Source: Escherichia phage vB_Eco_Mak
Sequence record: OX001577
Length of the DNA stretch: 40,137 bases
Reading direction: 5' to 3' (one strand)
The notes beneath the pieces are model-generated. The model did not search any database, was not told where the DNA came from, and saw only the letters and a list, made by a program, of their open reading frames with translations. Shown in pieces: positions 1 to 40,137 of the stretch. Each line of letters begins with the position of its first letter. Position 1 is the first letter of the stretch. The translations under genes were made by a program, and so were the position numbers.

Positions 1-111
1 GATAATCAAGCAACACTGCTGGTCTTGTTGTACTACGCAACTGCAAATGTAGTCGGGACGATGAAACTGCTATCCCTAAAGTTCTTTAACAATCTGGTAT
101 AAAGCGCATGT

Positions 112-166
112 GTTGAGTTAGAAAGTGATTGACTCAAGGCTGCTGAATGTAGTAGCCTTTATGACA
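112..166 (+). promoter_or_regulatory. RNase III-type processing hairpin upstream of RNAP gene
   Basis: TCTTTAACAATCTGGTA...GTTGAGTTAGAAAGTGATTGACTCAAGGCTGCTGAATGTAGTAGCCTTTATGA resembles the remembered T7 R0.3 site; stem AAGGCTGCT/AGTAGCCTT. Confidence 0.5.
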
Positions 167-206
167 AGCATTTAATTTCAGCCACTATAAGATGGAGACA
201 ACAACA

Positions 207-2891
207 ATGATTAACTTTGATAACATTCAGCGTAATGACTTCTCTGATGTGAAGAACGCCATTATGCCATTCAACGTACTGGCTGATGCTTACGGTGAAT
301 ATCTGGCAGGTGAACAACTGCGCTTAGAGCATGAGTCCTACCAGATGGGCGAGGAACGTTTCATCAAGGCGTTCGAGTCTGCCTGTAAGCGCGGTGAACT
401 CGGTGATTCTCTGGTGGCTCGCCCGTTACTGGAAACCTTGGTTCCTGCACTGAGTGAAGCAACTAAAGCATTCTTAGCTCAAGGTGGTCGTGGTCGTCCG
501 CATGTGTCTAAGCAATACCTGAGCCGTATTGACACCGACCTTGCTGCCTTTATCACCATCAAAGTTGTGCTGATGTCCTTGGGTTCTCCTGCGACAGGCA
601 AAGTAAACAACCACGGTGCTGTAACTGGTGCTAACATGCAGTCAGTCTGTATGTCTATCTCCAAGGCTATCGAGGAGGAGTGCCGCTTCGGTCGCATTCG
701 TGAAGAAGAAGCACAGCATTTCAAGAATCGCGTTAAACCATCGCTGGATAAGCGCCAAGGTCTGCTGTACAAGCGTGAGTACATGAAGGCTGTTGAAGCT
801 GGCATGATTGCTAAAGGCGAGTTGGATAGTCACTTTGAGGAGTGGCCGCGCGATGAAGCATACCATGTTGGTGTCAAGATGTTGGAGCTGCTGATTGAAT
901 CAACTGGTCTGTGCGAGATTGTACGCAAGAACGCTGGTAATCCTAAGTTAGACCGCTACGAAGTGGAACTGACCGAAGAATACGCTGACAAGCTGACCTC
1001 TCGTGTGTCTGCCTTGGCTGGTATCTCACCTGTTAAGCAACCTTGTGTAGTACCACCTAAGCCTTGGACTGGTATCATCGGCGGTGGCTATTGGGCAAAA
1101 GGTCGCAAGCCTTTGCGTCTGATTCGTACCGGAACTAAACGCGCTCTGATGCGCTACAACGATGTGGATATGCCAGATGTGTACAAAGCTATCAACATCA
1201 TTCAGAACACCGCTTGGAAGGTCAATGCGGACGTGCTGAAGGTAGCTAACGAGATTGTCTACTGGAAGCATTGCCCTGTTGAAGACATCCCACAACTGGA
1301 CAAGCTGGATAAACCTGTACGTCCTGAAGGTATTGATGAAGATGAAGCCCTGCTGAAGAAGTGGAAGAAGAACGCTGCGACCATCTACCGCAAGGAGAAA
1401 GCCCGTCAGTCTCGCCGCTTGTCTCTTGACTTCATGATGGCACAAGCTAACAAGTTCGCTCAGTACGATGCCATTTGGTTCCCGTACACAATGGACTGGC
1501 GCGGTCGTGTATATGCTGAGCCAATGTTTAACCCACAAGGTAACGACCTGACCAAAGGTCTGTTAACTTTCGCTAACGGCTGTGAGCTGGGTTCTGAAGG
1601 TGCTTACTGGCTGGCGGTGCATGGCTCCAACTGTGCGGGTGTCGATAAAGTATCACTGGACGACCGCGTTAAGTGGGTGTACGAGAACGAAGAAAACATC
1701 TTGGCATCCGCTGAGAACCCATTAGACTGCACTTGGTGGGCGGAACAAGACTCCCCATTCTGCTTCTTAGCATTCTGCTTCGAGTGGGCAGGGTACGTTA
1801 AGTCTGGCCGTAGTGAAGGCTATGTGTCTCACCTGCCACTGGCATTCGATGGTACTTGCTCCGGTCTGCAACACTTCTCTGCAATGCTGCGTGATGAAGT
1901 TGGTGGTGCTGCTGTTAACCTGCTGCCTGCTGACAAACCACAAGACATCTACGGTATTGTTGCCCAGAAAGTAAACGTCCTGTTGGAGCGTGACCTGTTG
2001 AACGGCACCGAGGACAGCACCAAGATTGTTGTCGATAAGAAGACAGGTGAACAGATTGAGAAGTTTGTTCTGGGTACACGTAACGCTGCTAAACAATGGC
2101 TGCAACACGGTGTAAACCGTAGCGTAACCAAGCGTTCTGTGATGACTCTGGCATACGGTTCCAAGAAGTACGGCTTTGCCGAGCAAATCATGGAGGATAC
2201 TTTACGTCCTGCCATTGATAAAGGCGAAGGTAATCAGTTCACTGCACCTAACCAAGCTGCAATGTATCTGGCTGGTCTTATCTGGGACTGTGTATCAACT
2301 ACCGTAATCGCTGCGGTACAAGCTATGGAATGGTTGCAGAAGTCCGCTGCTCTGATTAGTTCAGAAGTGCGAGACAAGAAGACCAAGGAGCTGTTAAAGC
2401 CTGCTCTGCCTATTCACTGGACTACTCCTAACGGGTTCCCTGTTTGGTCAGAGTACATGATTCAGGAGGAGAAGCGCATTGAAGCGACTCTGTTTGGTGA
2501 ACTGCGTATCCGCAACACTATCAAGCTGCGTGATACCGCCAAGATTGACGCTCAAGCTCAGGCTTCTGGTATTGCACCTAACTTCATCCATAGCAACGAT
2601 GCGTCTCACCTGCAAATGACCGCTGTGTACTGCCACGATGTGTACGGGATTGTTGACTTTGCATTCATCCACGACTCATTCGGTTGTCACGCTGGTAAAG
2701 CTCACCTGCTGTTCAAAGGTGTGCGTGAGACAATGGTTAAGACTTACAGTGAACACGATGTAATCGCTGAGTTCTATGAGCAATTCGCTGAGCAACTGCA
2801 CGAGTCCCAACTGGACAAGATGCCAGCTCTTCCTGAGAAGGGTAACTTAGACCTGAACGAAATCCTGAAGTCACTGTACACTTTCAGTTAA
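207..2891 (+). CDS. T7-like single-subunit DNA-directed RNA polymerase
   Basis: ORF 192..2891 aligns along its full length with remembered T7 gp1 (e.g. PCVVPPKPWTGI, AIWFPY..MDWRGRVYA, WWAEQDSPFCFLAFCFE, LAFDGTCSGLQHFSAM, RSVTKRSVMTLAYGS, HESQLDKMPALP). The T7 alignment begins at MINFDN, so the second ATG (207) with GGAG 9 nt upstream is the likely start; 192 is the alternative. Confidence 0.95.
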   Translation: MINFDNIQRNDFSDVKNAIMPFNVLADAYGEYLAGEQLRLEHESYQMGEERFIKAFESACKRGELGDSLVARPLLETLVPALSEATKAFLAQGGRGRPHVSKQYLSRIDTDLAAFITIKVVLMSLGSPATGKVNNHGAVTGANMQSVCMSISKAIEEECRFGRIREEEAQHFKNRVKPSLDKRQGLLYKREYMKAVEAGMIAKGELDSHFEEWPRDEAYHVGVKMLELLIESTGLCEIVRKNAGNPKLDRYEVELTEEYADKLTSRVSALAGISPVKQPCVVPPKPWTGIIGGGYWAKGRKPLRLIRTGTKRALMRYNDVDMPDVYKAINIIQNTAWKVNADVLKVANEIVYWKHCPVEDIPQLDKLDKPVRPEGIDEDEALLKKWKKNAATIYRKEKARQSRRLSLDFMMAQANKFAQYDAIWFPYTMDWRGRVYAEPMFNPQGNDLTKGLLTFANGCELGSEGAYWLAVHGSNCAGVDKVSLDDRVKWVYENEENILASAENPLDCTWWAEQDSPFCFLAFCFEWAGYVKSGRSEGYVSHLPLAFDGTCSGLQHFSAMLRDEVGGAAVNLLPADKPQDIYGIVAQKVNVLLERDLLNGTEDSTKIVVDKKTGEQIEKFVLGTRNAAKQWLQHGVNRSVTKRSVMTLAYGSKKYGFAEQIMEDTLRPAIDKGEGNQFTAPNQAAMYLAGLIWDCVSTTVIAAVQAMEWLQKSAALISSEVRDKKTKELLKPALPIHWTTPNGFPVWSEYMIQEEKRIEATLFGELRIRNTIKLRDTAKIDAQAQASGIAPNFIHSNDASHLQMTAVYCHDVYGIVDFAFIHDSFGCHAGKAHLLFKGVRETMVKTYSEHDVIAEFYEQFAEQLHESQLDKMPALPEKGNLDLNEILKSLYTFS

Positions 2892-2955: not shown

Positions 2956-3453
2956 ATGGTTGACTTTTCTGCTGTTGCTGCTGTTGGTTGTGGTGTTCTG
3001 AGCATTGTGTCTTGCGTCCTGATGTCTAAGCGAAGCATGGACAAGGAAGACATGAAGGTACTGCGCGGCCAAGTCCATGAGTTGAACCAAAAGCTGAAGG
3101 CTGAAAAAGAGTACAACGAGTACATGAAGAAAGACTACAAGTCACGCGAGATTGACTGGATGGGCAAGGTCATTGATGAACAACGGGTAGCCAAGGTGCT
3201 GCGTGACGAGTTAGGTAAAGCACGTAAGCAACTGAACGAGAAGTTACAACCTGCTACTGTGCAGTGTGACGGGGTATCTATCCGCTTGGACTCCAAGACT
3301 TCAATGAACTTCTCGGTAGGAAAAGTGATTAAAGAACTGTCACTCTCTGTGCTCGGTAACACTGTGACGGTCACTGTAGTTAAACACAATGGAATTGTTA
3401 AATCACATACATTCCAGAACGTGAGCTATAGTTACCGACAAGCGCAGCAATAA
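2956..3453 (+). CDS. hypothetical protein; N-terminal hydrophobic helix followed by a charged coiled-coil-like region
   Basis: 165-aa ORF with strong RBS (TAGGAGGATAAAATG). N-terminus AVAAVGCGVLSIVSCVLM is hydrophobic, followed by a K/E-rich segment. No family recognised. Confidence 0.65.
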   Translation: MVDFSAVAAVGCGVLSIVSCVLMSKRSMDKEDMKVLRGQVHELNQKLKAEKEYNEYMKKDYKSREIDWMGKVIDEQRVAKVLRDELGKARKQLNEKLQPATVQCDGVSIRLDSKTSMNFSVGKVIKELSLSVLGNTVTVTVVKHNGIVKSHTFQNVSYSYRQAQQ

Positions 3454-3509
3454 CAATAACTTAGGGTAGTCTGTAATGGGCTACCCTTTTGTCGTTTGTT
3501 AATGCCACT

Positions 3510-3664: not shown

Positions 3665-4390
3665 ATGTTAGGTGGAGCACCATTTCAGATTGTACAACCT
3701 AAAGAGCCAGTGAAGTTCGGTGGATTAGGTCACGCTAATGTAGGCATAAAGTCATTACCTAAAGACCGTGGTGTATCATGGTCTGACTTCTATAAGGGTC
3801 GCTTAGGTCAGTCCTATGTTAGTCATGTGTACAAGAACTATAAGGTACATATTGAAGCTATTCGCAGATACATCATTCAGCTATCGCTCAGTAAGAACAG
3901 CTCAATCAAACCACTACGTGTAGTCGAAGCTGGTTGTGGTATCGGGTCTATCACACTGAACCTTGCTGATATGTCAGACCATAAGACAGTTATCTGCTCA
4001 GGCTTTGATGTGTCAGAAGGACAAGTTGTTAACTCTCGTGAGAACGCATTGCTTAACAATGTGGGTGACAGAGTGTCCTTTCATAAAGGTGACATCTTTA
4101 ATAGTGACGTATATAAAGATGCCCACATCATTCACTCTCATGGTGTCTTAGAACACTTCAGTGACGATGACATTATGAAAATCCTATTGACACAACTCAG
4201 TTCTCCTAACGTTCGGTATGTCATTCACTATGTACCACTGGAAGGATGGAAGACTCCCTCTTATGGTGATGAACGCCTGTTACCGCTGACACATTGGGTC
4301 AATGAGTTCGCTCCTACCCGTACCGTTGCGTTCAACGATGGTAAAGACGCTGTGCTAATCTGGGACGTTGAGTCTTTACTTCGCAATTAA
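3665..4390 (+). CDS. class I SAM-dependent methyltransferase (substrate unknown)
   Basis: 241-aa ORF with RBS AAGAGG 7 nt upstream. Contains a Rossmann-fold motif I (VVEAGCGIGSITLNL), an acidic residue after beta2 (GFDVSEG), and FHKGDIF / HSHGVLEHF motifs typical of small-molecule or RNA methyltransferases. Lies in an apparently AT-richer block preceded by two promoter copies. Confidence 0.75.
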   Translation: MLGGAPFQIVQPKEPVKFGGLGHANVGIKSLPKDRGVSWSDFYKGRLGQSYVSHVYKNYKVHIEAIRRYIIQLSLSKNSSIKPLRVVEAGCGIGSITLNLADMSDHKTVICSGFDVSEGQVVNSRENALLNNVGDRVSFHKGDIFNSDVYKDAHIIHSHGVLEHFSDDDIMKILLTQLSSPNVRYVIHYVPLEGWKTPSYGDERLLPLTHWVNEFAPTRTVAFNDGKDAVLIWDVESLLRN

Positions 4391-5698: not shown

Positions 5699-6439
5699 AT
5701 GATTCATGTACATCTGCCAACAATCATTGGTATCTGCGCTCATGCACCACGTTCAGGTAAAGACACTCTGGCTGACTACATCGAGCGAGAAGCTGAGACC
5801 AAGGGTCTGCGCTATTTCCGTATTGCCTTCGGTGACTTGCTGCGTGAGGTAGTATCAACACTGTTCGGTATGAACTCTCGTGACTACGTTATGGCTGCTC
5901 TGCTGGGTTCCATGAAAGACGTAGCTCATGGTCGGTACAGTATCCGTAACCTAGAGAACGAATCCCTTAAAGAGTTCCTGATTGGAACCTTGGGATTAGA
6001 CCCAGACGAACCACGTTCCCCACGTTTCTATATGCAGCGTGTAGGCAACGACTACGTTAAGGGTCACTTAGGTCTTGAGAGCATGTGGGTTGACGCTGTG
6101 GGTACACAGATTACCACTCGCCTGTTGTACGGTAACGCTCCTGACTTGGTGATTATCACAGATGTCCGCTCACCTAATGAGTTCGACTATGTGACTGAAT
6201 GTGGGTTCTCGGTTGAAGTTAAGACTCAGGGCTTCCCTGCCTTGACTCACTCTGCTAAACCTGACACCTCTCACCCTGTAGAGAATCACCGCTTTGACTG
6301 TGACTTTGTGTTCACCAATGTGTATGGTGACATGCAGTCCCTTCAGTATCAGCTCCGTGAGTCTGGTCTGATTGATGCAGTCATTGAGCGTAACGAGATA
6401 TTGAAGCAACGTGTATTTGAACAGGAGGATTACCAGTGA
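5699..6439 (+). CDS. P-loop deoxynucleoside monophosphate kinase (T4 gp1-like)
   Basis: N-terminal P-loop APRSGKDTLADYI resembles T4 dNMP kinase (SGVKRSGKDTTADFI); ITDVRSPNEFDYV resembles T4 VPDTRQDHE. ATG 5699 follows promoter copy 5669..5692, whose GGAGAAC doubles as RBS. Track ORF starts at TTG 5684. Confidence 0.65.
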   Translation: MIHVHLPTIIGICAHAPRSGKDTLADYIEREAETKGLRYFRIAFGDLLREVVSTLFGMNSRDYVMAALLGSMKDVAHGRYSIRNLENESLKEFLIGTLGLDPDEPRSPRFYMQRVGNDYVKGHLGLESMWVDAVGTQITTRLLYGNAPDLVIITDVRSPNEFDYVTECGFSVEVKTQGFPALTHSAKPDTSHPVENHRFDCDFVFTNVYGDMQSLQYQLRESGLIDAVIERNEILKQRVFEQEDYQ

Positions 6440-6603
6440 AGCGATTCGTTATCCATCTTGAACGTGAAGGTTCCAATGAGGAAGAACGCACTGTTATCTT
6501 GGCGCGTGACCTAGACCATGCACTAGACAAAGCTCACTCTTTGTACGGTGAGGACGTGGTAACTCGTGTCCGTCCTGAATTAACACCCACTATTGGAAAC
6601 TAA
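6436..6603 (+). CDS. possible small protein (55 aa, GTG start)
   Basis: GTG 6436 overlaps the kinase stop (GTGA) and has a strong RBS (AGGAGG 6 nt upstream). Reads VKRFVIHLEREGSNEEERTVILARDLDHALDKAHSLYGEDVVTRVRPELTPTIGN. Its last codons are encoded by promoter copy 6578..6600. Not in the ORF track (under 60 aa). Confidence 0.4.
   Translation: MKRFVIHLEREGSNEEERTVILARDLDHALDKAHSLYGEDVVTRVRPELTPTIGN
6578..6600 (+). promoter_or_regulatory. phage RNAP promoter
   Basis: AATTAACACCCACTATTGGAAAC, followed by RNase III hairpin 6611..6656. Confidence 0.7.
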
Positions 6604-6610
6604 ACTCTAA

Positions 6611-6656
6611 GATAAAACTCAAGGTCATTCGCACAGAGTGGCCTTTATGATTTATC
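6611..6656 (+). promoter_or_regulatory. RNase III-type processing hairpin
   Basis: GATAAAACTCAAGGTCATTCGCACAGAGTGGCCTTTATGATTTATC, with outer stem GATAAA/TTTATC and the conserved core CAAGGTC...GTGGCCTTTATGA seen in T7 R sites. Confidence 0.6.
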
Positions 6657-11290: not shown

Positions 11291-11338
11291 GTTACATACT
11301 CAAGGTCATCCGTAATGGGTGGCCTTTATGAATGTAAT
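11291..11338 (+). promoter_or_regulatory. RNase III-type processing hairpin
   Basis: GTTACATACTCAAGGTCATCCGTAATGGGTGGCCTTTATGAATGTAAT after the amidase gene. Confidence 0.55.
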
Positions 11339-17442: not shown

Positions 17443-19047
17443 ATGGCTGAAGTTAAACGTGAAGGTCTAGCTGCTGAAGGTGCAGCCAAGACATATGAGC
17501 GTTTGAAGAATGACCGTAACGACTACGTGACCCGTGCAGAGGACTGTGCCAAGTACACCATTCCTAGTCTGTTCCCTAAGGATTCAGACGATGGTGGTAC
17601 GAGTTATACGACTCCTTGGCAGTCCATTGGTGCTCGCGGTCTGAACAACATTAGCGCAAAGGTAAACCTAGCGTTGTTCCCTGTAGGTGCGCCTTTCTTC
17701 AAACTGAATATCTCTGAGCTAGAGCTGAAGCAAATCATCACCGATTCGTCTGCACTTCAAGATGTAGCACAAGGTCTGTCGATGGTTGAGCGTATTGTTC
17801 TTAGCTACATGGAGGCCAACGGTTATCGAACTTCTCTGGTTGAAGCTATTCGTCAACTCTTTGTTAGCGGTAACGTGCTGCTGTACGTGACCAATCCTGA
17901 CGAGATGATGGATGGTGAAATGGCTGGTCTGAAGGTCTACCGATTGCCGTCCTATGTAGTTGAACGAGATGGATTCGATAACGTCTTGCAGATTGTAGCA
18001 GTCGATAAGATTGCCCGCGTAGCGTTACCTGAAGACATCCAATCTGCTATCGCTGAGGAGACTACCGATGAAAACCTGACAGAAGAAGTCGAGATTTACA
18101 CTCACATCTACCGTAACTCTGAGACACAAATGTTCACAGTTTATCAGGAGATTGAGGGTGAAATCGTAGCTGGCTCTGAAGGTGAGTACCCATTGGATGC
18201 TTGCCCTTGGATTCCTGTACGTCTTATCAAGATGCCTAACGAGGACTATGGACGTTCGTTCGTAGAAGAATACCTCGGTGACTTGAAGTCATTGGAGGCT
18301 CTGTACGAGGCTATGATTAAGATGTCCATGATTGCCGCTAAGGTTCTGTTCATGGTTAACCCTAACGGACAGACTCAGGTTCGCCGTATGGCTAAGGCCA
18401 ACACAGGTGACTTTGTAGCTGGTCGTAAGGAAGACATCGGAGTATTCCAGTTAGAGAAACAACAGGACTTCAACACAGCGAAGATTGTAGCTGACACCAT
18501 TGAGGCTCGCTTGTCGTATGCCTTCATGTTGAACTCTGCGGTACAACGCGGTGGTGACCGTGTTACTGCTGAGGAGATTCGCTATGTGGCTGGTGAATTG
18601 GAGGACACTCTGGGTGGTATCTATTCGTTACTGTCCCAAGAGTTACAGATGCCTTTAGTCCGCATCCTGTTGCGTGTACTGGAAGCTACCTCGAAGATTC
18701 CTAACTTGCCTAAGGAAGCTGTTGAACCTGCTGTTGCTACTGGTCTGGAAGCTCTGGGTCGTGGTCATGACCTTGACAAGCTGAATATGTTCGTTAACGG
18801 TATTGCTACTCTGTCTGCAATCCAAGACGAAGACCTGAACATGCGTGACATTAAGATGCGCTACGCTAACTCTCTGGGTATGGACACTGCTGGTATGATT
18901 CTGACTCCTGAGGAGAAACAACAGAAGATGGCTGAAATGGCTCAACAACAGGCCATGATGCAAGGTGGTGCCGCTGCGGGTGGCGTAATGGGTCAAGCTG
19001 GTGGTCAAGCAATGGCTGAACAAGCTGCTCAGATGATGCAACAATAA
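17443..19047 (+). CDS. portal / head-tail connector protein (T7 gp8-like)
   Basis: 534 aa, the size and position of T7 gp8, with a Gln/Ala/Met-rich C-terminal tail (MAEMAQQQAMMQGG...QMMQQ). Sits immediately before the scaffold and capsid genes. Confidence 0.9.
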   Translation: MAEVKREGLAAEGAAKTYERLKNDRNDYVTRAEDCAKYTIPSLFPKDSDDGGTSYTTPWQSIGARGLNNISAKVNLALFPVGAPFFKLNISELELKQIITDSSALQDVAQGLSMVERIVLSYMEANGYRTSLVEAIRQLFVSGNVLLYVTNPDEMMDGEMAGLKVYRLPSYVVERDGFDNVLQIVAVDKIARVALPEDIQSAIAEETTDENLTEEVEIYTHIYRNSETQMFTVYQEIEGEIVAGSEGEYPLDACPWIPVRLIKMPNEDYGRSFVEEYLGDLKSLEALYEAMIKMSMIAAKVLFMVNPNGQTQVRRMAKANTGDFVAGRKEDIGVFQLEKQQDFNTAKIVADTIEARLSYAFMLNSAVQRGGDRVTAEEIRYVAGELEDTLGGIYSLLSQELQMPLVRILLRVLEATSKIPNLPKEAVEPAVATGLEALGRGHDLDKLNMFVNGIATLSAIQDEDLNMRDIKMRYANSLGMDTAGMILTPEEKQQKMAEMAQQQAMMQGGAAAGGVMGQAGGQAMAEQAAQMMQQ

Positions 19048-24433: not shown

Positions 24434-24464
24434 GAGGGTCACTATATTTAGTGGCTCTCTTTTA
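24434..24464 (+). terminator. stable hairpin with U-tract between the promoter and the kinase gene (terminator or attenuator candidate)
   Basis: GAGGGTCACT-ATATTT-AGTGGCTCTC (10-bp stem with G-U pairs) followed by TTTTA. Confidence 0.35.
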
Positions 24465-24477
24465 TGGAGGAATTTTA

Positions 24478-25107
24478 ATGAGAATTGTAGTTATTGAAGC
24501 TAACATTGGTGCAGGTAAATCCACTTTGTTACAACCTCTTGTGGATGAACTTCAGCTATGGTCTGGTGAAGATTGGGACTTAGTGATTGAACCAGTAGAC
24601 CAAGACCCTGAGTTCCACCGTCTGTTGAAAGAAATGATTGCCGATATGTCTAACCCAGACAAGCGTATTCGTTTCCAGATGTACCTGACCGAGCAGCGTC
24701 AACAACTGTTAAAGAACTTACCTGATGGAAACTATGTCGTTGAACGCTCTCTGTTCAGTGACCTTGTGTTCTCCCAGATGTATTTCTTAACGACTGAGAA
24801 ACCTTCTGCCGAGTACATGAATTATTACTACAACATCAAGGAACGTCTGAAAGACTACCCTCAGATTGATTGTGTCGTGTACTTAGACCGTGACCCTGCG
24901 TCTTGCCATGAGTCCATCATCAAGCGTGGTCGTGAAGGTGAGCACTATGAGATGCACTATCTGGAAGACCTAAAGCGTTTCCACGATGCGTGTCTACCTC
25001 AGATTGCTCGTGAGTATAACACTAAGCTAATCACTGTGGACTTAGGTAAGACCTATGCTCTGCCTTCTGTGATTGCTGCTGATGTAATGGAGCACTTATA
25101 TGGCTAA
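24478..25107 (+). CDS. deoxynucleoside kinase (dCK/dGK/TK2 family)
   Basis: P-loop IEANIGAGKSTL, ERS motif (VVERSLFSD) and a DRDP...C....IIKRGREGE lid motif characteristic of deoxyribonucleoside kinases. ATG 24478 has GGAGG 7 nt upstream; track ORF begins at GTG 24451. Confidence 0.7.
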   Translation: MRIVVIEANIGAGKSTLLQPLVDELQLWSGEDWDLVIEPVDQDPEFHRLLKEMIADMSNPDKRIRFQMYLTEQRQQLLKNLPDGNYVVERSLFSDLVFSQMYFLTTEKPSAEYMNYYYNIKERLKDYPQIDCVVYLDRDPASCHESIIKRGREGEHYEMHYLEDLKRFHDACLPQIAREYNTKLITVDLGKTYALPSVIAADVMEHLYG

Positions 25108-34555: not shown

Positions 34556-34900
34556 ATGTACTTAAACTATTCACAAGCTATGCAGGCTTTGTTGGATGGT
34601 TATGATGTCATTCGGGAGAGCACAGGACGTGTTCTCTCTGTTGATAAGACCAACAACAATATGTTTGCCTACTGGCCTGAACTTGGTGAAGGTCTGCGGG
34701 ATACACCAATGAGTCAAGAAGACTTAGAGGCAACCGACTGGAAAATCTATGACCATAATGGTAACGATGCTCCTGAGGACTCCTCTCAGTTCGACATCAA
34801 GGTTCCTGTGGACACCAAGCAACAACAAATTGATGAACTAACTGATAAGTTAGCAAATCTTGAACAGAAACTCATGGAGGTGCTAAATGCCAAGTCCTAA
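34556..34900 (+). CDS. small protein, possibly DUF2829-like (tentative, from recalled motif pattern)
   Basis: 114-aa ORF with RBS AAGGAGG. N-terminal ..AMQALLDGYDV.R...G and later W.....PMSQEDLEATDWKIY resemble the F.EAL.ALK.G..V.R.GW ... W.PSQ.DLLAEDW.I pattern I recall for DUF2829, plus a C-terminal coiled-coil tail. Family assignment is from memory, not a search. Confidence 0.55.
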   Translation: MYLNYSQAMQALLDGYDVIRESTGRVLSVDKTNNNMFAYWPELGEGLRDTPMSQEDLEATDWKIYDHNGNDAPEDSSQFDIKVPVDTKQQQIDELTDKLANLEQKLMEVLNAKS

Positions 34901-36705: not shown

Positions 36706-36753
36706 GTTATATACTCAAGGTCATTCGCGTAGAGTGGCCTTTATGAATATAAC
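36706..36753 (+). promoter_or_regulatory. RNase III-type processing hairpin
   Basis: GTTATATACTCAAGGTCATTCGCGTAGAGTGGCCTTTATGAATATAAC with perfect outer stem GTTATAT/ATATAAC. Confidence 0.6.
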
Positions 36754-36775: not shown

Positions 36776-37021
36776 ATGACCGAAAGTGATAACGCTACGC
36801 AAAATCTGAGTAGAAGTCCTTATGGATTATGGTCAGAAATTGAAGGATTGCGTAGTCTGGCAGACACTTTGATAGGTGGAGAGATGCCTATGGAGGTGTA
36901 CAACGCTCTGACTCCTGAGCAAAAGAAGATTACCCTTAACGTAACCAAGGCGTGTTCACAATGTGCTACTGCCTTAGAGAAGTTTCAAGAGGAGGTACTA
37001 AATGTCGGCTGCCCAAAGTAA
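36776..37021 (+). CDS. hypothetical protein
   Basis: 81-aa ORF with RBS AAGGAGG, right after an RNase III-type hairpin; overlaps the terminase large subunit start. No transmembrane segment. Confidence 0.5.
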
Positions 37022-39119: not shown

Positions 39120-39600
39120 TCCTTATCAGTCTACCTACGATTAAGTGTCTAGTGTCAATACCCTTATGTTAGTGACCTTATGTGTTAACCTTAGGGTAGG
39201 TTGGTCTTAGTGTCGCCTACCTTATGTTGTTAACACTATGTTAGTCCATTTTGTACAACACTAGAAAAATCTGAGTGACCATCTCACATATCAAGACCCA
39301 TTTAATCCCCCCATAGGGGTCAAACCTTATGTCCATCCCTTATGTCATTCCCTAAGTCTATCATTTTGTCTATCAATAGGTTTTAACTCTCGGTTGAGGT
39401 GGGGACAATAGGTGGAGACTATGGGTTTGTATCTCTATGTCTCCCTATCTGTATAGACCTTGTGTCTCCTCTCTATGTCTCTACCCTTATGTCTCCTCTC
39501 TATGTTCTATCAACTAGGCAGCATCCTACCTTATGTTAGACCCTAGGTCAATAACCTTATGTCATAGACCCTATAAATAGACCTTATCTATATAGACCAT
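39120..39600 (+). repeat. array of short CYTTATGT / CTCTATGT motifs flanking the genome end
   Basis: At least 12 copies of CCTTATGT-like octamers (e.g. ACCCTTATGTTAG, GACCTTATGTG, AAACCTTATGTCC, CCCTTATGTCTCC, AACCTTATGTCATAG) at irregular spacing; analogous to the ACCTAAAG repeat arrays at T7 ends. Confidence 0.6.
39283..39446 (+). repeat. predicted genome left terminus and direct terminal repeat (by analogy with T7)
   Basis: TCTCACATATCAAGACCC...CCCCCCATAGGGG parallels the remembered T7 left end (TCTCACAGTGTACGGACC...CCCCCATAGGGGG), and ...CTCTATGTCTCCCT parallels the end of the T7 160-bp terminal repeat (...CTCTGTGTCCCT). Only one copy can be present in a collapsed assembly. Confidence 0.35.
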
Positions 39601-39623
39601 AATTAACACCCACTATTGAAGAA
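39601..39623 (+). promoter_or_regulatory. phage RNAP promoter-like element near the left genome end (variant)
   Basis: AATTAACACCCACTATTGAAGAA (GAAGA instead of GGAGA at the start site), just upstream of the A1-like host promoter. Confidence 0.45.
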
Positions 39624-39653
39624 CAACAATCTTAATTATTTTAATATTGAGTA

Positions 39654-39682
39654 TTGACATTAGAACTTAGTGTCTATAGTAT
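39654..39682 (+). promoter_or_regulatory. host sigma70-type early promoter (T7 A1-like)
   Basis: TTGACA (39654..39659), 17-nt spacer, TAGTAT (39677..39682); flanks (GAGTATTGAC upstream, GGCGTCCATCGAAGGGAAACACGG downstream) resemble remembered T7 A1. Confidence 0.65.
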
Positions 39683-39782
39683 GGCGTCCATCGAAGGGAA
39701 ACACGGAAACGGTGCGACTCTGAGATTACAGCGTCAAGCGGTACAAGTAGACAGCCTGCTAAGTCATACGAACAACAGGTAC

Positions 39783-39811
39783 TTGACAACAGAAACAAGA
39801 AACACTAAGAT
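39783..39811 (+). promoter_or_regulatory. host sigma70-type early promoter (T7 A2-like)
   Basis: TTGACA (39783..39788), 17-nt spacer, TAAGAT (39806..39811); upstream GTAGACAGCCTG.TAAGTC matches the remembered T7 A2 context. Confidence 0.6.
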
Positions 39812-39859
39812 ACACCACAACGAAACAACAACAGAAACACCAACAAATAGGAGTTGACA

Positions 39860-40003
39860 ATGTTCAAGTTAAAATGTAAAGTGATGCCAATCCACAACAA
39901 ACAGGGTCACACAGTATGTACACCTGATGGATTTGCGATGAATGCTCGTGTTGAACGACTGAAGCGTGAACTCAAGATGAATCGTATGCTGAACAACATC
40001 TAA
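39860..40003 (+). CDS. T7 gp0.6-like early protein
   Basis: 47 aa; VMPIHNKQGHTVCTPDGFAMNARVERLKRELKMNR matches remembered T7 gene 0.6 product (VMPIHTSNGATVCTPDGFAMKQRIERLKRELRINR). RBS AGGAG 6 nt upstream. Downstream of two sigma70-type promoters. Confidence 0.6.
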   Translation: MFKLKCKVMPIHNKQGHTVCTPDGFAMNARVERLKRELKMNRMLNNI

Positions 40004-40010
40004 TAGCTAC

Positions 40011-40137
40011 GATAATCAAGCAACACTGCTGGTCTTGTTGTACTACGCAACTGCAAATGTAGTCGGGACGATGAAACTGCTATCCCTAAAGTTCTTTAAC
40101 AATCTGGTATAAAGCGCATGTGTTGAGTTAGAAAGTG
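40011..40137. repeat. exact duplicate of window positions 1..127 (probable assembly wrap-around of a circularly permuted sequence)
   Basis: Positions 40011..40137 are identical to 1..127 by direct comparison. The duplication lies between the gp0.6-like gene and the RNAP gene, not where T7-type terminal repeats reside. Confidence 0.8.

Follow-up and report, generated by a model that had tools for sequence, protein, structure and literature searches.

A T7-like early region that has probably lost its Ocr-kinase cassette by deletion between RNase III hairpin repeats

The early region of Escherichia phage vB_Eco_Mak raises the question of why a T7-like coliphage should carry a single 47-amino-acid gene ahead of its RNA polymerase (RNAP) gene, with neither Ocr (gp0.3) nor the gp0.7 kinase. 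The window analyzed here is the whole stretch of 40,137 nucleotides in record OX001577. An earlier note on this DNA read its layout as a minimal early region whose missing functions are encoded elsewhere or absent. We consider it probable that this is instead a class I early region that has lost an Ocr-kinase cassette of about 1.6 kb by deletion between two copies of an RNase III hairpin. The minimal appearance is most likely the product of a recent event similar to the H1 deletion of T7.

The region spans the ends of the record, which must be joined before it can be read. Two features define its surroundings:

39282..39455, + strand: what is probably the physical left end, with the direct terminal repeat in collapsed form, and with TCTCACA..., CCCCCATAGGGG and GTCTCCCTATCTGT motifs as at T7 nt 1-166
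40011..40137, no strand: assembly overlap that copies window positions 1..127 exactly and is not biological

The window is thus circularly permuted, with a unique length of 40010 bp. It matches the genome of Escherichia phage vB_Eco_Titus (OX090892.1) at 100% and that of vB_Eco_Bam (OW991346.2) at 99.9%. Titus is exactly 40010 bp long. The wrap is real: the early region of Titus is contiguous, and the 127-bp assembly overlap that was left uncollapsed in Bam falls in a different place, within the portal gene (record positions 18735-18988). The segment at 39282..39455 aligns locally with T7 nt 26-37 and 143-166. If the left end lies here, then gene 1 begins at about nt 936, compared with 3171 in T7.

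Between this end and the wrap lie four promoter-like sites and one gene:

39601..39623, + strand: leftmost phage-RNAP promoter, the phiOL analogue, with the sequence AATTAACACCCACTATTGAAGAA
39654..39682, + strand: A1-like sigma-70 promoter, TTGACA-N17-TAGTAT, with an AT-rich tract upstream
39783..39811, + strand: A2-like sigma-70 promoter, TTGACA-N17-TAAGAT
39854..39882, + strand: third sigma-70 promoter-like site, TTGACA-N17-TAAAGT
39860..40003, + strand: gp0.6 homologue of 47 aa, protein MFKLKCKVMPIHNKQGHTVCTPDGFAMNARVERLKRELKMNRMLNNI

The resemblance to T7 A1 and A2 that had been pointed out before is borne out by alignment. The first region has 45/63 identities with T7 A1, including GAGTATTGAC and CCATCGA.AGGG.ACACGG in the transcribed leader, and the second has 68/83 identities with T7 541-623, with -35 and -10 hexamers identical to those of A2. 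The two promoters are 129 nt apart here and 128 nt apart in T7. Together with the third site, they are the sole + strand sequences in the whole genome that agree with the sigma-70 consensus at 10/12 positions or more (TTGACA-N17 at 39654, 39783 and 39854); about seven such matches would be expected over both strands, scattered across 40 kb. The three sites have the near-consensus hexamers, 17-nt spacing, rightward orientation and clustering at the left end of T7-type early promoters. The sites at 39654 and 39783, which are homologous to A1 and A2, are predicted to be used by host RNAP.

The third TTGACA is also present where it had been reported, adjoining the start codon of the gp0.6-like gene. 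Its -35 hexamer forms the spacer between a GGAG ribosome-binding site and the gp0.6 ATG, and a transcript from this site would begin near 39889, within the open reading frame. The site is invariant in three relatives that are too close to be informative, and TTGACAA is all that it has in common with T7 A3. The interval 39601-40003, previously given to host promoters and gp0.6, does hold the sigma-70 promoters and the gene, but its first 23 bases (39601-39623) are a phage-RNAP promoter. This is one of 17 copies of the phage-promoter consensus AATTAACACCCACTATTGGAGA in the genome, the 12-mer core of which has 20 matches versus 3.7 expected, and it occupies the same place relative to A1 as phiOL does in T7.

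GenBank annotation of Titus and Bam is poor in this area, with spurious ORFs over the promoters in addition to the uncollapsed overlap in Bam. One such ORF (39654..39857, 67 aa) takes the TTG of a -35 hexamer as its start and spans the A1-A2 homology, and a search for a family match to it found none. Another (40035..40112) is short and also has a TTG start. Both are almost certainly not genes.

The only gene ahead of the RNAP gene is, as first described, gp0.6-like. It has 66% identity to T7 gp0.6A over 44 aa (E 2e-17), matches phrog_8393 (E 5e-20), has PF26851 (Phage_T7_0_6) among its precomputed hits, and carries the conserved core of the T7 gp0.6 family (VMPIH..G.TVCTPDGFAM..R.ERLKREL), which places it in that family. 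The local copy of Pfam gives no match and is presumably older than the PF26851 model. Homologues of gp0.6 are present in 208 phage records. T7 gp0.6, the only member for which this activity is known, is reported to target the actin-like protein MreB (PMC6965359, citing Molshanski-Mor 2014).

Neither Ocr nor gp0.7 has a homologue in this genome. In tblastn searches of the whole genome, the best match to Ocr has an E of 0.12 and falls inside the terminase gene, and the best match to gp0.7 has an E of 0.18. The 30 ORFs without clear assignment include neither family when compared with PHROGs (10/30 also with Pfam), and the same PHROG library detects both families in a relative described below. 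These scans rule out an Ocr or gp0.7 gene that was simply overlooked. The diverged early genes of the nearest other genus were considered as well (Aeromonas phage PT2 CDS 40-43, including a 'putative antirestriction protein'), and among them gp0.6 alone was found in the window.

Downstream, the transcribed unit would extend well past the small gene:

207..2891, + strand: gene 1, single-subunit phage RNA polymerase of 894 aa
2889..2911, + strand: first phage promoter past gene 1, in the phi1.1 position
2956..3453, + strand: ORFan of 165 aa, hydrophobic at its N-terminus and preceded by a strong ribosome-binding site
3463..3497, + strand: intrinsic terminator candidate, analogous to TE, with a 10-11-bp stem, a dG of -15 kcal/mol and a UUUUGUCGUUUGUU tail

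No terminator-like site was found between the promoters and gene 1. The early unit probably continues through gene 1 and the ORFan, which is probably its last gene, to the putative terminator at 3463-3497. In T7, too, the early unit is more than the genes ahead of gene 1. The ORFan has no PHROG match and no Pfam match above threshold, and searches of 5.8 billion proteins and a phage collection found no homologue outside this lineage. The same search led to the informative relatives. These are three uncultured genomes, labelled L013/L016, L017 and L019. Their Logan contigs, not listed in the order of those labels, are ERR10789834_8305, ERR10789771_39518 and ERR11525691_28692. The terminator candidate is identical in L013.

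All three relatives encode a 47-aa gp0.6 protein identical to that of the window, and outside one cassette their early regions align with the window nearly base for base, with a few short indels. This cassette, of about 1.6 kb, is located between gp0.6 and gene 1 and is bracketed by two hairpin copies. It encodes Ocr, ORFs of 43 and 41 aa, and a 246-aa kinase, and it includes a further RNase III site accompanied by a phage promoter. Their Ocr has 48% identity to that of T7 (E 1e-28; phrog_2568, E 4e-37) and their kinase has 39% identity to T7 gp0.7 residues 16-222 (E 5e-47; phrog_2828, E 8.5e-72). RNAP identity to the window is at least 96% throughout: it is 96% for L013, and 4/894 residues differ in L017 (ERR10789834). 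One relative, ERR11525691, has another promoter specificity than the window and lacks its methyltransferase.

At the place where the cassette would be, the window has a single hairpin:

53..175, + strand: stretch with homology to R0.3, an RNase III processing site in T7/T3-like phages, 74% identity over 123 nt to Teetrevirus
123..173, + strand: chimeric RNase III hairpin of two stems with an asymmetric internal loop
131..170, + strand: single copy of a ~39-bp direct repeat, the deletion joint, repeat TTGACTCAAGGCTGCTGAATGTAGTAGCCTTTATGACAA
171..206, + strand: gene 1 leader, with an R1-type 3' flank, a degenerate phage-promoter-like CAGCCACTATAAG and a GGAG ribosome-binding site

The Teetrevirus counterpart of the longer segment ends 26 nt ahead of gene 0.3, and the window sequence at about 53..175 also aligns with T7 R0.3. 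The lower stem of the hairpin pairs 123-127 with 169-173 and 129-131 with 165-167, and it is interrupted by an A.G mismatch at 128/168. Beyond the internal loop, a 10-bp upper stem (136-145/150-159) closes a loop at 146-149. In a consensus structure, 6/29 pairs show compensatory changes, although these come from only about three independent lineages. The conserved ACUCAAGG ... CCUUUAUGA flanks are those of a T7-type R0.3/R1 structure, and the motif of ACTCAAGG, hairpin and GGCCTTTATGA is seen again at 6643, 11324 and 36739. No Rfam family matches anywhere in the window, this site included. Global minimum free energy folding of 100-140-nt stretches around the site was uninformative (z of about 0 to -1), and the structure became clear only once homologues and tighter boundaries were used. 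RNase III would presumably cut near 162/163, by analogy with the cut position in T7 R0.3.

Comparison with the relatives shows that this hairpin is a composite. In L017, the ~39-bp repeats lie at about 697-738 (copy 1) and 2295-2335 (copy 2). The window equals copy 1, in the R0.3 position, through position 170 (...GTAGTAGCCTTTATGACAA), and from 171 to 206 (from GCATTTAATTTCAGCC...) it equals the sequence 3' of copy 2, in the R1 position, in L017 and L019; this stretch is identical to L017 2336-2371. In the full-length relatives, copy 1 instead continues toward ocr, with ...TTTATGACAA joined to TTACTTAATTAC... (…CCTTTATGACAATTACTTAATTAC… across the junction). The single copy in the window thus has its upstream flank and loop from copy 1 and its downstream flank from copy 2, and relative to an L017-type parent the crossover falls within about 150-170. 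The long form has direct repeats at both ends and the short form has one copy, as in a repeat-mediated deletion of the T7 H1 type. In L017 the lower stem is 9 bp long and perfectly paired in each parental copy, and the two stems co-vary (A-U in copy 1, U-G in copy 2). The A.G mismatch in the window is what a chimera would have and fits a derived state. Predicted folding energies are -16.7 for the window hairpin and -21.5 and -19.6 for the parental copies. If RNase III cleaves the chimeric hairpin, as its structure predicts, then this weaker element might be processed less well. The early transcript would, as proposed earlier, cross the wrap into the RNAP gene, but the RNase III site on its way is an R0.3/R1 chimera rather than a plain R0.3.

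The most likely history behind these sequences is that recombination or replication slippage between the ~39-bp hairpin copies in the R0.3 and R1 positions deleted the cassette and left a chimeric hairpin directly upstream of gene 1. After entry of the leading genome end, host sigma-70 RNAP would start at the two A1/A2-homologous promoters, and possibly at the third, transcribe the gp0.6 homologue, pass the RNase III hairpin, and then transcribe gene 1. It would probably halt at 3463-3497 after one ORFan gene, and the phage polymerase would then take over from the 17 phage promoters.

The opposite direction of change is unlikely. The short form could be ancestral if the cassette had been inserted into the relatives at the RNase III site, with duplication of the hairpin. 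Early regions of the Studiervirinae are known to be plastic (PMC10974468), gp0.6 homologues in unrelated phages show that small early genes move, and a T7-type promoter-like relic ahead of ocr in the relatives (TTAATTACT..CACTATAGGAGA), unlike their own promoter consensus, may mean that this piece came from elsewhere. However, both lineages of promoter specificity have the cassette, and in each of them the promoter inside it fits the specificity of its own genome, which suggests that the cassette is a long-term resident. By RNAP and promoter type the window is nested with L017 and L019, which carry the cassette, as does the more distant L013. The window hairpin is mismatched where both copies in the relatives pair, and possession of Ocr and gp0.7 at this location is the common state in T7/T3 relatives. 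Loss is thus favored over gain by the co-variation of the promoters, by the mismatch in the chimera, and by parsimony across no more than four or five genomes, all of them close relatives. The short form has been seen in cultured isolates only (Titus and Bam), and the loss may have arisen in the wild or while these phages were being isolated and propagated. Neither junction form had hits in two scans of IMG/VR and one of JGI metagenomes.

A naturally minimal region, with the missing functions supplied by a methyltransferase, kinases or small ORFs as the earlier note suggested among its options, is similarly improbable. In its favor, one methyltransferase, two kinases and several ORFans are indeed encoded here, gp2-like and gp5.5-like host-takeover genes are retained, and Pseudomonas phage gh-1, with no gene ahead of gene 1, shows that such an architecture is viable (PMC3080317). 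Relatives with the identical gp0.6 nevertheless have Ocr and the kinase between gp0.6 and gene 1, and the deletion joint already explains their absence here directly. The proposed substitutes also fail individually. The methyltransferase (3665..4390) matches domains common to class I SAM-methyltransferases in general, and its nearest relatives of solved structure methylate proteins or small molecules. None of the standard DNA-methyltransferase Pfam families matches it, and the one hit that carries a DNA-methyltransferase label, in PHROGs, is weak and partial (E 1.4e-3). The gene is moreover present alongside Ocr in L017, and a role as a DNA-modification substitute is not supported. Both kinases are nucleotide kinases of the dNMP and thymidylate types (phrog_139 and phrog_761), which rules them out as replacements for gp0.7. 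No strongly acidic, DNA-mimic-like protein was found among the early and middle ORFs; the most acidic small protein (34556..34900, pI 4.2) is the product of a late gene adjoining the tail fibre. Host shut-off is predicted to be kept through one further gene:

6436..6603, + strand: gp2-like inhibitor of host RNA polymerase (PF16857, E 1.7e-8; phrog_1307, E 2.4e-9)

Avoidance of type II sites is extreme, and this passive protection is kept: GATC occurs once (130 expected), CCWGG not at all (67 expected) and GGNCC once (91 expected), and 36/64 hexamer palindromes are absent from the genome. In contrast, EcoKI (7) and EcoBI (9) sites occur at expectation with no avoidance, which also counts against a naturally minimal region and is the reason to predict sensitivity to type I restriction. 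With the cassette, the phage should have given up its active defence against BREX and type I systems. Ocr is a liability where it is sensed by abortive-infection systems such as PARIS. Systems of the EcoKI and EcoBI types, and BREX as well, are expected to restrict the phage, which might evade Ocr-sensing defences.

A more elaborate version of the deletion model is unlikely. In it, the hairpin pair would be a built-in recombination module from which the cassette is shed reversibly, to be regained by recombination with relatives of full length. Ocr is needed in hosts with type I restriction-modification or BREX and harmful in PARIS-type hosts, and the phage population would in this way be hedged against both. 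Titus and Bam would represent one selected state of a polymorphism rather than laboratory accidents.

An assembly artefact or mixed stock, in which the assembler skipped the cassette at the repeated hairpin, is very improbable: the joint does lie within a repeat and the circularization overlap (1..127) does end just upstream, but the ~39-bp repeat is far below the 127-bp overlap, which suggests k = 127, the same joint occurs in two separately deposited assemblies, the ends of the Bam contig lie in the portal gene, which puts the early region in its interior, and the length of Titus is exactly the unique length of the window.

If a deletion produced this early region, then the absence of Ocr and gp0.7 becomes a dated and mechanistically explained event with testable consequences. 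The full-length relatives and the deletion isolate would form a natural matched pair in which to weigh what the T7 anti-defence cassette costs and what it brings, and the example suggests that a hairpin for RNA processing can also serve as a substrate for recombination and in this way remodel an early region. Without Ocr, the effective host range of a therapy or typing phage would be narrower.

Besides the uncultured sister genomes, three known systems bear comparison. Phage gh-1 (Ghunavirus) also belongs to the Studiervirinae; its record is annotated with A1-A3 host promoters followed by an R1 RNase III site and gene 1 at nt 1058, and it has no Ocr or gp0.7 (PMC3080317). It differs from the window in having no ORF at all before gene 1, in its host and distant sequence, and in that no sister genomes with a repeat-flanked cassette are known for it.

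The early region of T7 itself shares with the window the order of phiOL, A1, A2 and a third TTGACA promoter, homologous A1, A2 and R0.3 elements, a gp0.6 homologue, gene 1 as the main early product, and a phage promoter right after gene 1. The window lacks 0.3, 0.4, 0.5 and 0.7, its gp0.6 is upstream of the R0.3-type site where that of T7 is downstream, and its third promoter overlaps the gp0.6 start. Its gene 1 begins some 936 nt in from the left end as placed here (3171 in T7), and its terminator candidate follows the first gene past gene 1, whereas that of T7 follows the ligase gene.

Events of the proposed kind have long been familiar from laboratory T7, and a precedent is its H1 deletion (nt 1256-2735). 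Short direct repeats of 12 bp give rise to it spontaneously, early genes are lost by it, and it goes together with higher fitness and with sensitivity to BREX (PMC7261183). In H1-type deletions, as proposed for the window, direct repeats flank a lost segment of about 1.5-1.6 kb with early genes that are not essential, Ocr and the gp0.7 kinase are removed or disabled, and the phage is viable. The repeats in the present case are longer (~39 bp) and are the RNase III hairpins themselves, which would leave a chimeric processing site. The window also keeps gp0.6 and would have lost Ocr and the kinase whole rather than fused, and its form is found in environmental isolates, whereas H1 arose in a laboratory T7 stock.

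The gp0.6-like gene and the sigma-70 promoter-like sequences around it are as follows.

39654-39682, + strand, A1-like sigma-70 promoter (TTGACA-N17, -10 hexamer TAGTAT)
39783-39811, + strand, A2-like sigma-70 promoter (TTGACA-N17, -10 hexamer TAAGAT)
39854-39882, + strand, third sigma-70 promoter-like site (TTGACA-N17, -10 hexamer TAAAGT)
39860..40003, + strand, gp0.6 homologue of 47 aa (T7 gp0.6A, phrog_8393, PF26851)

The likeness to T7 promoters claimed in the earlier note is clear for A2 (68 of 83 identities between the second promoter and T7 541-623) and recognisable for A1 (45/63), and the two are 129 nt apart, against 128 nt in T7. On the + strand of the whole genome, these three sites are the only ones matching at least 10 of 12 sigma-70 consensus positions, where about seven matches would be expected by chance on both strands together over 40 kb. 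The third TTGACA does abut the gp0.6 start: this -35 hexamer is all that separates the start codon (ATG, 39860) from a GGAG ribosome-binding site. Transcription from this site would start near 39889 within the gp0.6 ORF, and its product could encode gene 1, not gp0.6. The region opens with a phage-polymerase promoter that the earlier note did not mention (39601-39623), one of 17 copies of AATTAACACCCACTATTGGAGA; it occupies the place that phiOL has in T7. Two GenBank ORFs are implausible as genes. ORF 39654..39857 starts at the TTG of a -35 hexamer, matches no family and overlaps the homologue of non-coding A1-A2 sequence in T7; ORF 40035..40112 is short and TTG-started.

The gp0.6 assignment is genuine: the 47-aa protein is 66% identical to T7 gp0.6A (E 2e-17), matches phrog_8393 (E 5e-20) and carries PF26851 in precomputed hits. 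This family is widespread, occurring in 208 phage records, large myoviruses among them. We also find neither Ocr nor gp0.7, as had been claimed. Genome-wide tblastn with the T7 proteins gives best E values of only 0.12-0.18, and neither family is matched by any of 30 ORFs without a clear assignment (PHROGs; 10 also Pfam). The same PHROG library detects the Ocr and kinase families where they are present (E 4e-37 and 8.5e-72). No strongly acidic protein occurs among the early or middle proteins of the window.

The early region across the wrap of the window is real. Self-comparison shows that 1..127 exactly duplicates 40011..40137, so the underlying genome has 40,010 bp and the window is its circularised assembly. 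The cultured isolate vB_Eco_Titus (OX090892.1, 40,010 bp) matches at 100% over the queried stretches, with gp0.6, hairpin and gene 1 contiguous, and vB_Eco_Bam (OW991346.2) matches at 99.9%; both are unclassified Studiervirinae. The Bam record has its assembly overlap, an uncollapsed 127-bp tandem duplication, in the portal gene (18735-18988), and its early region is therefore internal to the contig. This duplication creates a spurious CDS, BAMTRB_030, and further ORFs annotated over the Bam terminal-repeat/promoter region are likely spurious too. T7-like end motifs at 39282-39452 (TCTCACA…, CCCCCATAGGGG and GTCTCCCTATCTGT) suggest a physical left end near 39282, from which gene 1 would start at about nt 936, compared with 3171 in T7.

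The R0.3-like site of the earlier note is likewise borne out, since window positions ~53..175 align with T7 R0.3 and, at 74% identity over 123 nt, with an element whose end in T3-like phages lies 26 nt upstream of gene 0.3. In consensus, the site folds into the classical T7 processing signal of lower stem, asymmetric internal loop and upper stem, with compensatory changes in 6 of 29 consensus pairs that come from only about three independent lineages. The ACTCAAGG-hairpin-GGCCTTTATGA motif recurs at 6643, 11324 and 36739. The hairpins there, also RNase III hairpins of T7 type, have ACTCAAGGTCAT…GTGGCCTTTATGA in common and lie after the gp2-like gene (6621-6650), before the phage promoter at 11340 (11300-11332) and in the lysis/packaging region just upstream of ORF 36776..37021 (36715-36747). 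Such repeats could mediate more rearrangements.

Relatives were retrieved through homologues of the ORFan after gene 1 and as contigs encoding an identical gp0.6 protein. Three of them are informative here.

ERR11525691_28692, uncultured relative (L013/L016)
ERR10789834_8305, uncultured relative (L017, from a 36.6-kb contig)
ERR10789771_39518, uncultured relative (L019)

In their early regions nearly every base aligns with the window, with a few short indels. Between gp0.6 and gene 1, each carries a cassette encoding an Ocr of 114-117 aa (48% identity to T7 Ocr, E 1e-28), a 246-aa kinase (39% identity to T7 gp0.7 residues 16-222, E 5e-47) and ORFs of 43 and 41 aa, with an internal RNase III site and phage promoter. 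The stretch corresponding to the C-terminal part of T7 gp0.7 is missing from this kinase. Two direct hairpin copies bracket the cassette. Copy 1 reads TTGACTCAAGGCTGCTGAATGTAGTAGCCTTTATGACAA and runs into the ocr leader; copy 2 is the same save for a 1-3-nt loop difference and runs into GCATTTAATTTCAGCCACTATAAGATGGAGACAACAACA and the gene 1 ATG. Only one copy is present in the window (131-170). Up to 170 the window corresponds to copy 1 with its upstream flank, and from 171 on it matches exactly what follows copy 2 in L017 and L019. The segment absent from the window is 1,597 bp (L017 coordinates 739-2335).

Three points favour loss of the cassette over its gain. Compared with L017, the window polymerase shows 4 differences in 894 residues, and compared with L013 it shows 96% identity; by polymerase and promoter type the window thus groups with L017, and both L017 and the more distant L013 carry the cassette. 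Second, the cassette-internal phage promoter fits the specificity of its own genome (CACCCACTAAT in L017, CCCTGACTAAT in L013), which suggests that the cassette was resident before these lineages diverged. Third, the parental hairpins have perfect, co-varying 9-bp lower stems (A-U in copy 1, U-G in copy 2), whereas the window hairpin combines the copy 1 5' arm with the copy 2 3' arm and has an A.G mismatch where both parental stems are paired (-16.7 kcal/mol, versus -21.5 and -19.6 in the parental copies). A weaker point comes from a fifth contig, L014, which starts exactly 30 nt before the repeat end. Logan contigs are built with k = 31, and this start is expected from such a graph if the sample holds both continuations. 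The short form is seen in cultured isolates only, and neither junction form turned up when IMG/VR and JGI metagenomes were scanned. Ocr is reportedly sensed by PARIS; that the hairpin repeats allow ready loss of the cassette where having Ocr is a disadvantage is speculative and quite improbable.

Other promoter-like sequences occur nearby. A degenerate phage-promoter-like TTTAATTTCAGCCACTATAAGATGGAGA lies directly upstream of gene 1 (171-200) and is present in L017 and L019, not in L013 or L014. The relatives have another, T7-type relic, TTAATTACT..CACTATAGGAGA, before ocr. Phage-promoter specificity itself differs between near-identical relatives, being AATTAACACCCACTATTGGAGA in the window (for example 2889-2911 and 39601-39623) and L017 and AATTAACCCTGACTATTGGA in L013 (1-8607 compared). 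Differences between the window (gene 1, 207..2891) and L013 polymerases are concentrated at residues ~103-130 and within the specificity loop (752-771, MIQEEKRIEATLFGELRIRNTIKL versus MVQEEKVIDTVLFGNLRLQNKIKL). Judged by these sequences, window/L017 versus L013 is a natural polymerase and promoter co-switch.

Host RNA polymerase would initiate at the A1- and A2-like promoters to give gp0.6 mRNA. RNase III may then cleave the chimeric hairpin near 162/163, by analogy with the T7 R0.3 cut position, and gene 1 could be translated from its GGAG site. No terminator-like element lies between the promoters and gene 1. The first convincing intrinsic terminator candidate (3463-3497, stem -15 kcal/mol, U-rich tail) is identical in L013 and falls after a 165-aa ORFan and before two phage promoters. 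If it is a TE analogue, then the methyltransferase and ligase are transcribed by the phage polymerase, not the host enzyme. The ORFan (2956..3453, between gene 1 and this candidate) is hydrophobic at its N-terminus and otherwise charged and probably helical, and its homologues are confined to this phage lineage among 5.8 billion proteins searched.

Probably nothing replaces the lost functions. The methyltransferase proposed as a substitute (3665..4390) has generic class I SAM-methyltransferase domains, and among solved structures its nearest relatives are methyltransferases that act on proteins and small molecules. None of the standard DNA-methyltransferase Pfam families matches it, its sole match so labelled (PHROG, E 1.4e-3) is weak and partial, and L017 has both it and Ocr. 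This gene is a second presence/absence polymorphism of the clade, found in the window, L014 and L017 and replaced in L013 (5860-5930) by a short ORF between the same flanking phage promoters; most of its phage homologues belong to unrelated Aeromonas phages. The kinases, also proposed, are in fact a dNMP kinase and a thymidylate-type kinase. A thymidylate or deoxynucleoside kinase gene, inserted at 24451..25107, separates tail gene 12 from internal virion protein gene 13; in T7-like genomes this is an unusual site for a gene of nucleotide metabolism. Host shut-off would still be covered by a gp2-like host RNA polymerase inhibitor (6436..6603) and a gp5.5-like protein.

Type II sites are extremely depleted across the window (GATC 1 versus 130 expected, CCWGG 0 versus 67, GGNCC 1 versus 91); of the 64 hexamer palindromes, 36 are missing. 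Type I sites occur at chance frequency (EcoKI 7, all in the same orientation; EcoBI 9). The type III site EcoP15I (CAGCAG) occurs twice on the + strand versus 75 times on the - strand. T7 has a one-orientation arrangement that blocks type III cleavage; with the two opposite sites of the window, cutting is still possible in principle. We predict that the phage is sensitive to restriction by type I systems and also to BREX, which T7 reportedly needs Ocr to overcome (PMC7261183).

In the T7-like phage gh-1, promoters A1-A3 and an RNase III site precede gene 1, and early ORFs are absent altogether (PMC3080317), and the region before gene 1 is plastic in this clade, Titus included (PMC10974468). 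We found no literature description of this deletion; the only paper in the library searched that names Titus and Bam mentions early-region plasticity without describing a deletion (PMC10974468). Spontaneous early-gene deletions between short direct repeats are classical in T7 (PMC7261183). One of them, H1 (nt 1256-2735), occurs between 12-bp repeats in laboratory growth, is linked to higher fitness and makes T7 BREX-sensitive (PMC7261183). What is new is the specific putative event, with predicted endpoints within two RNase III hairpins, together with a chimeric processing site as its apparent scar and matched full-length relatives.
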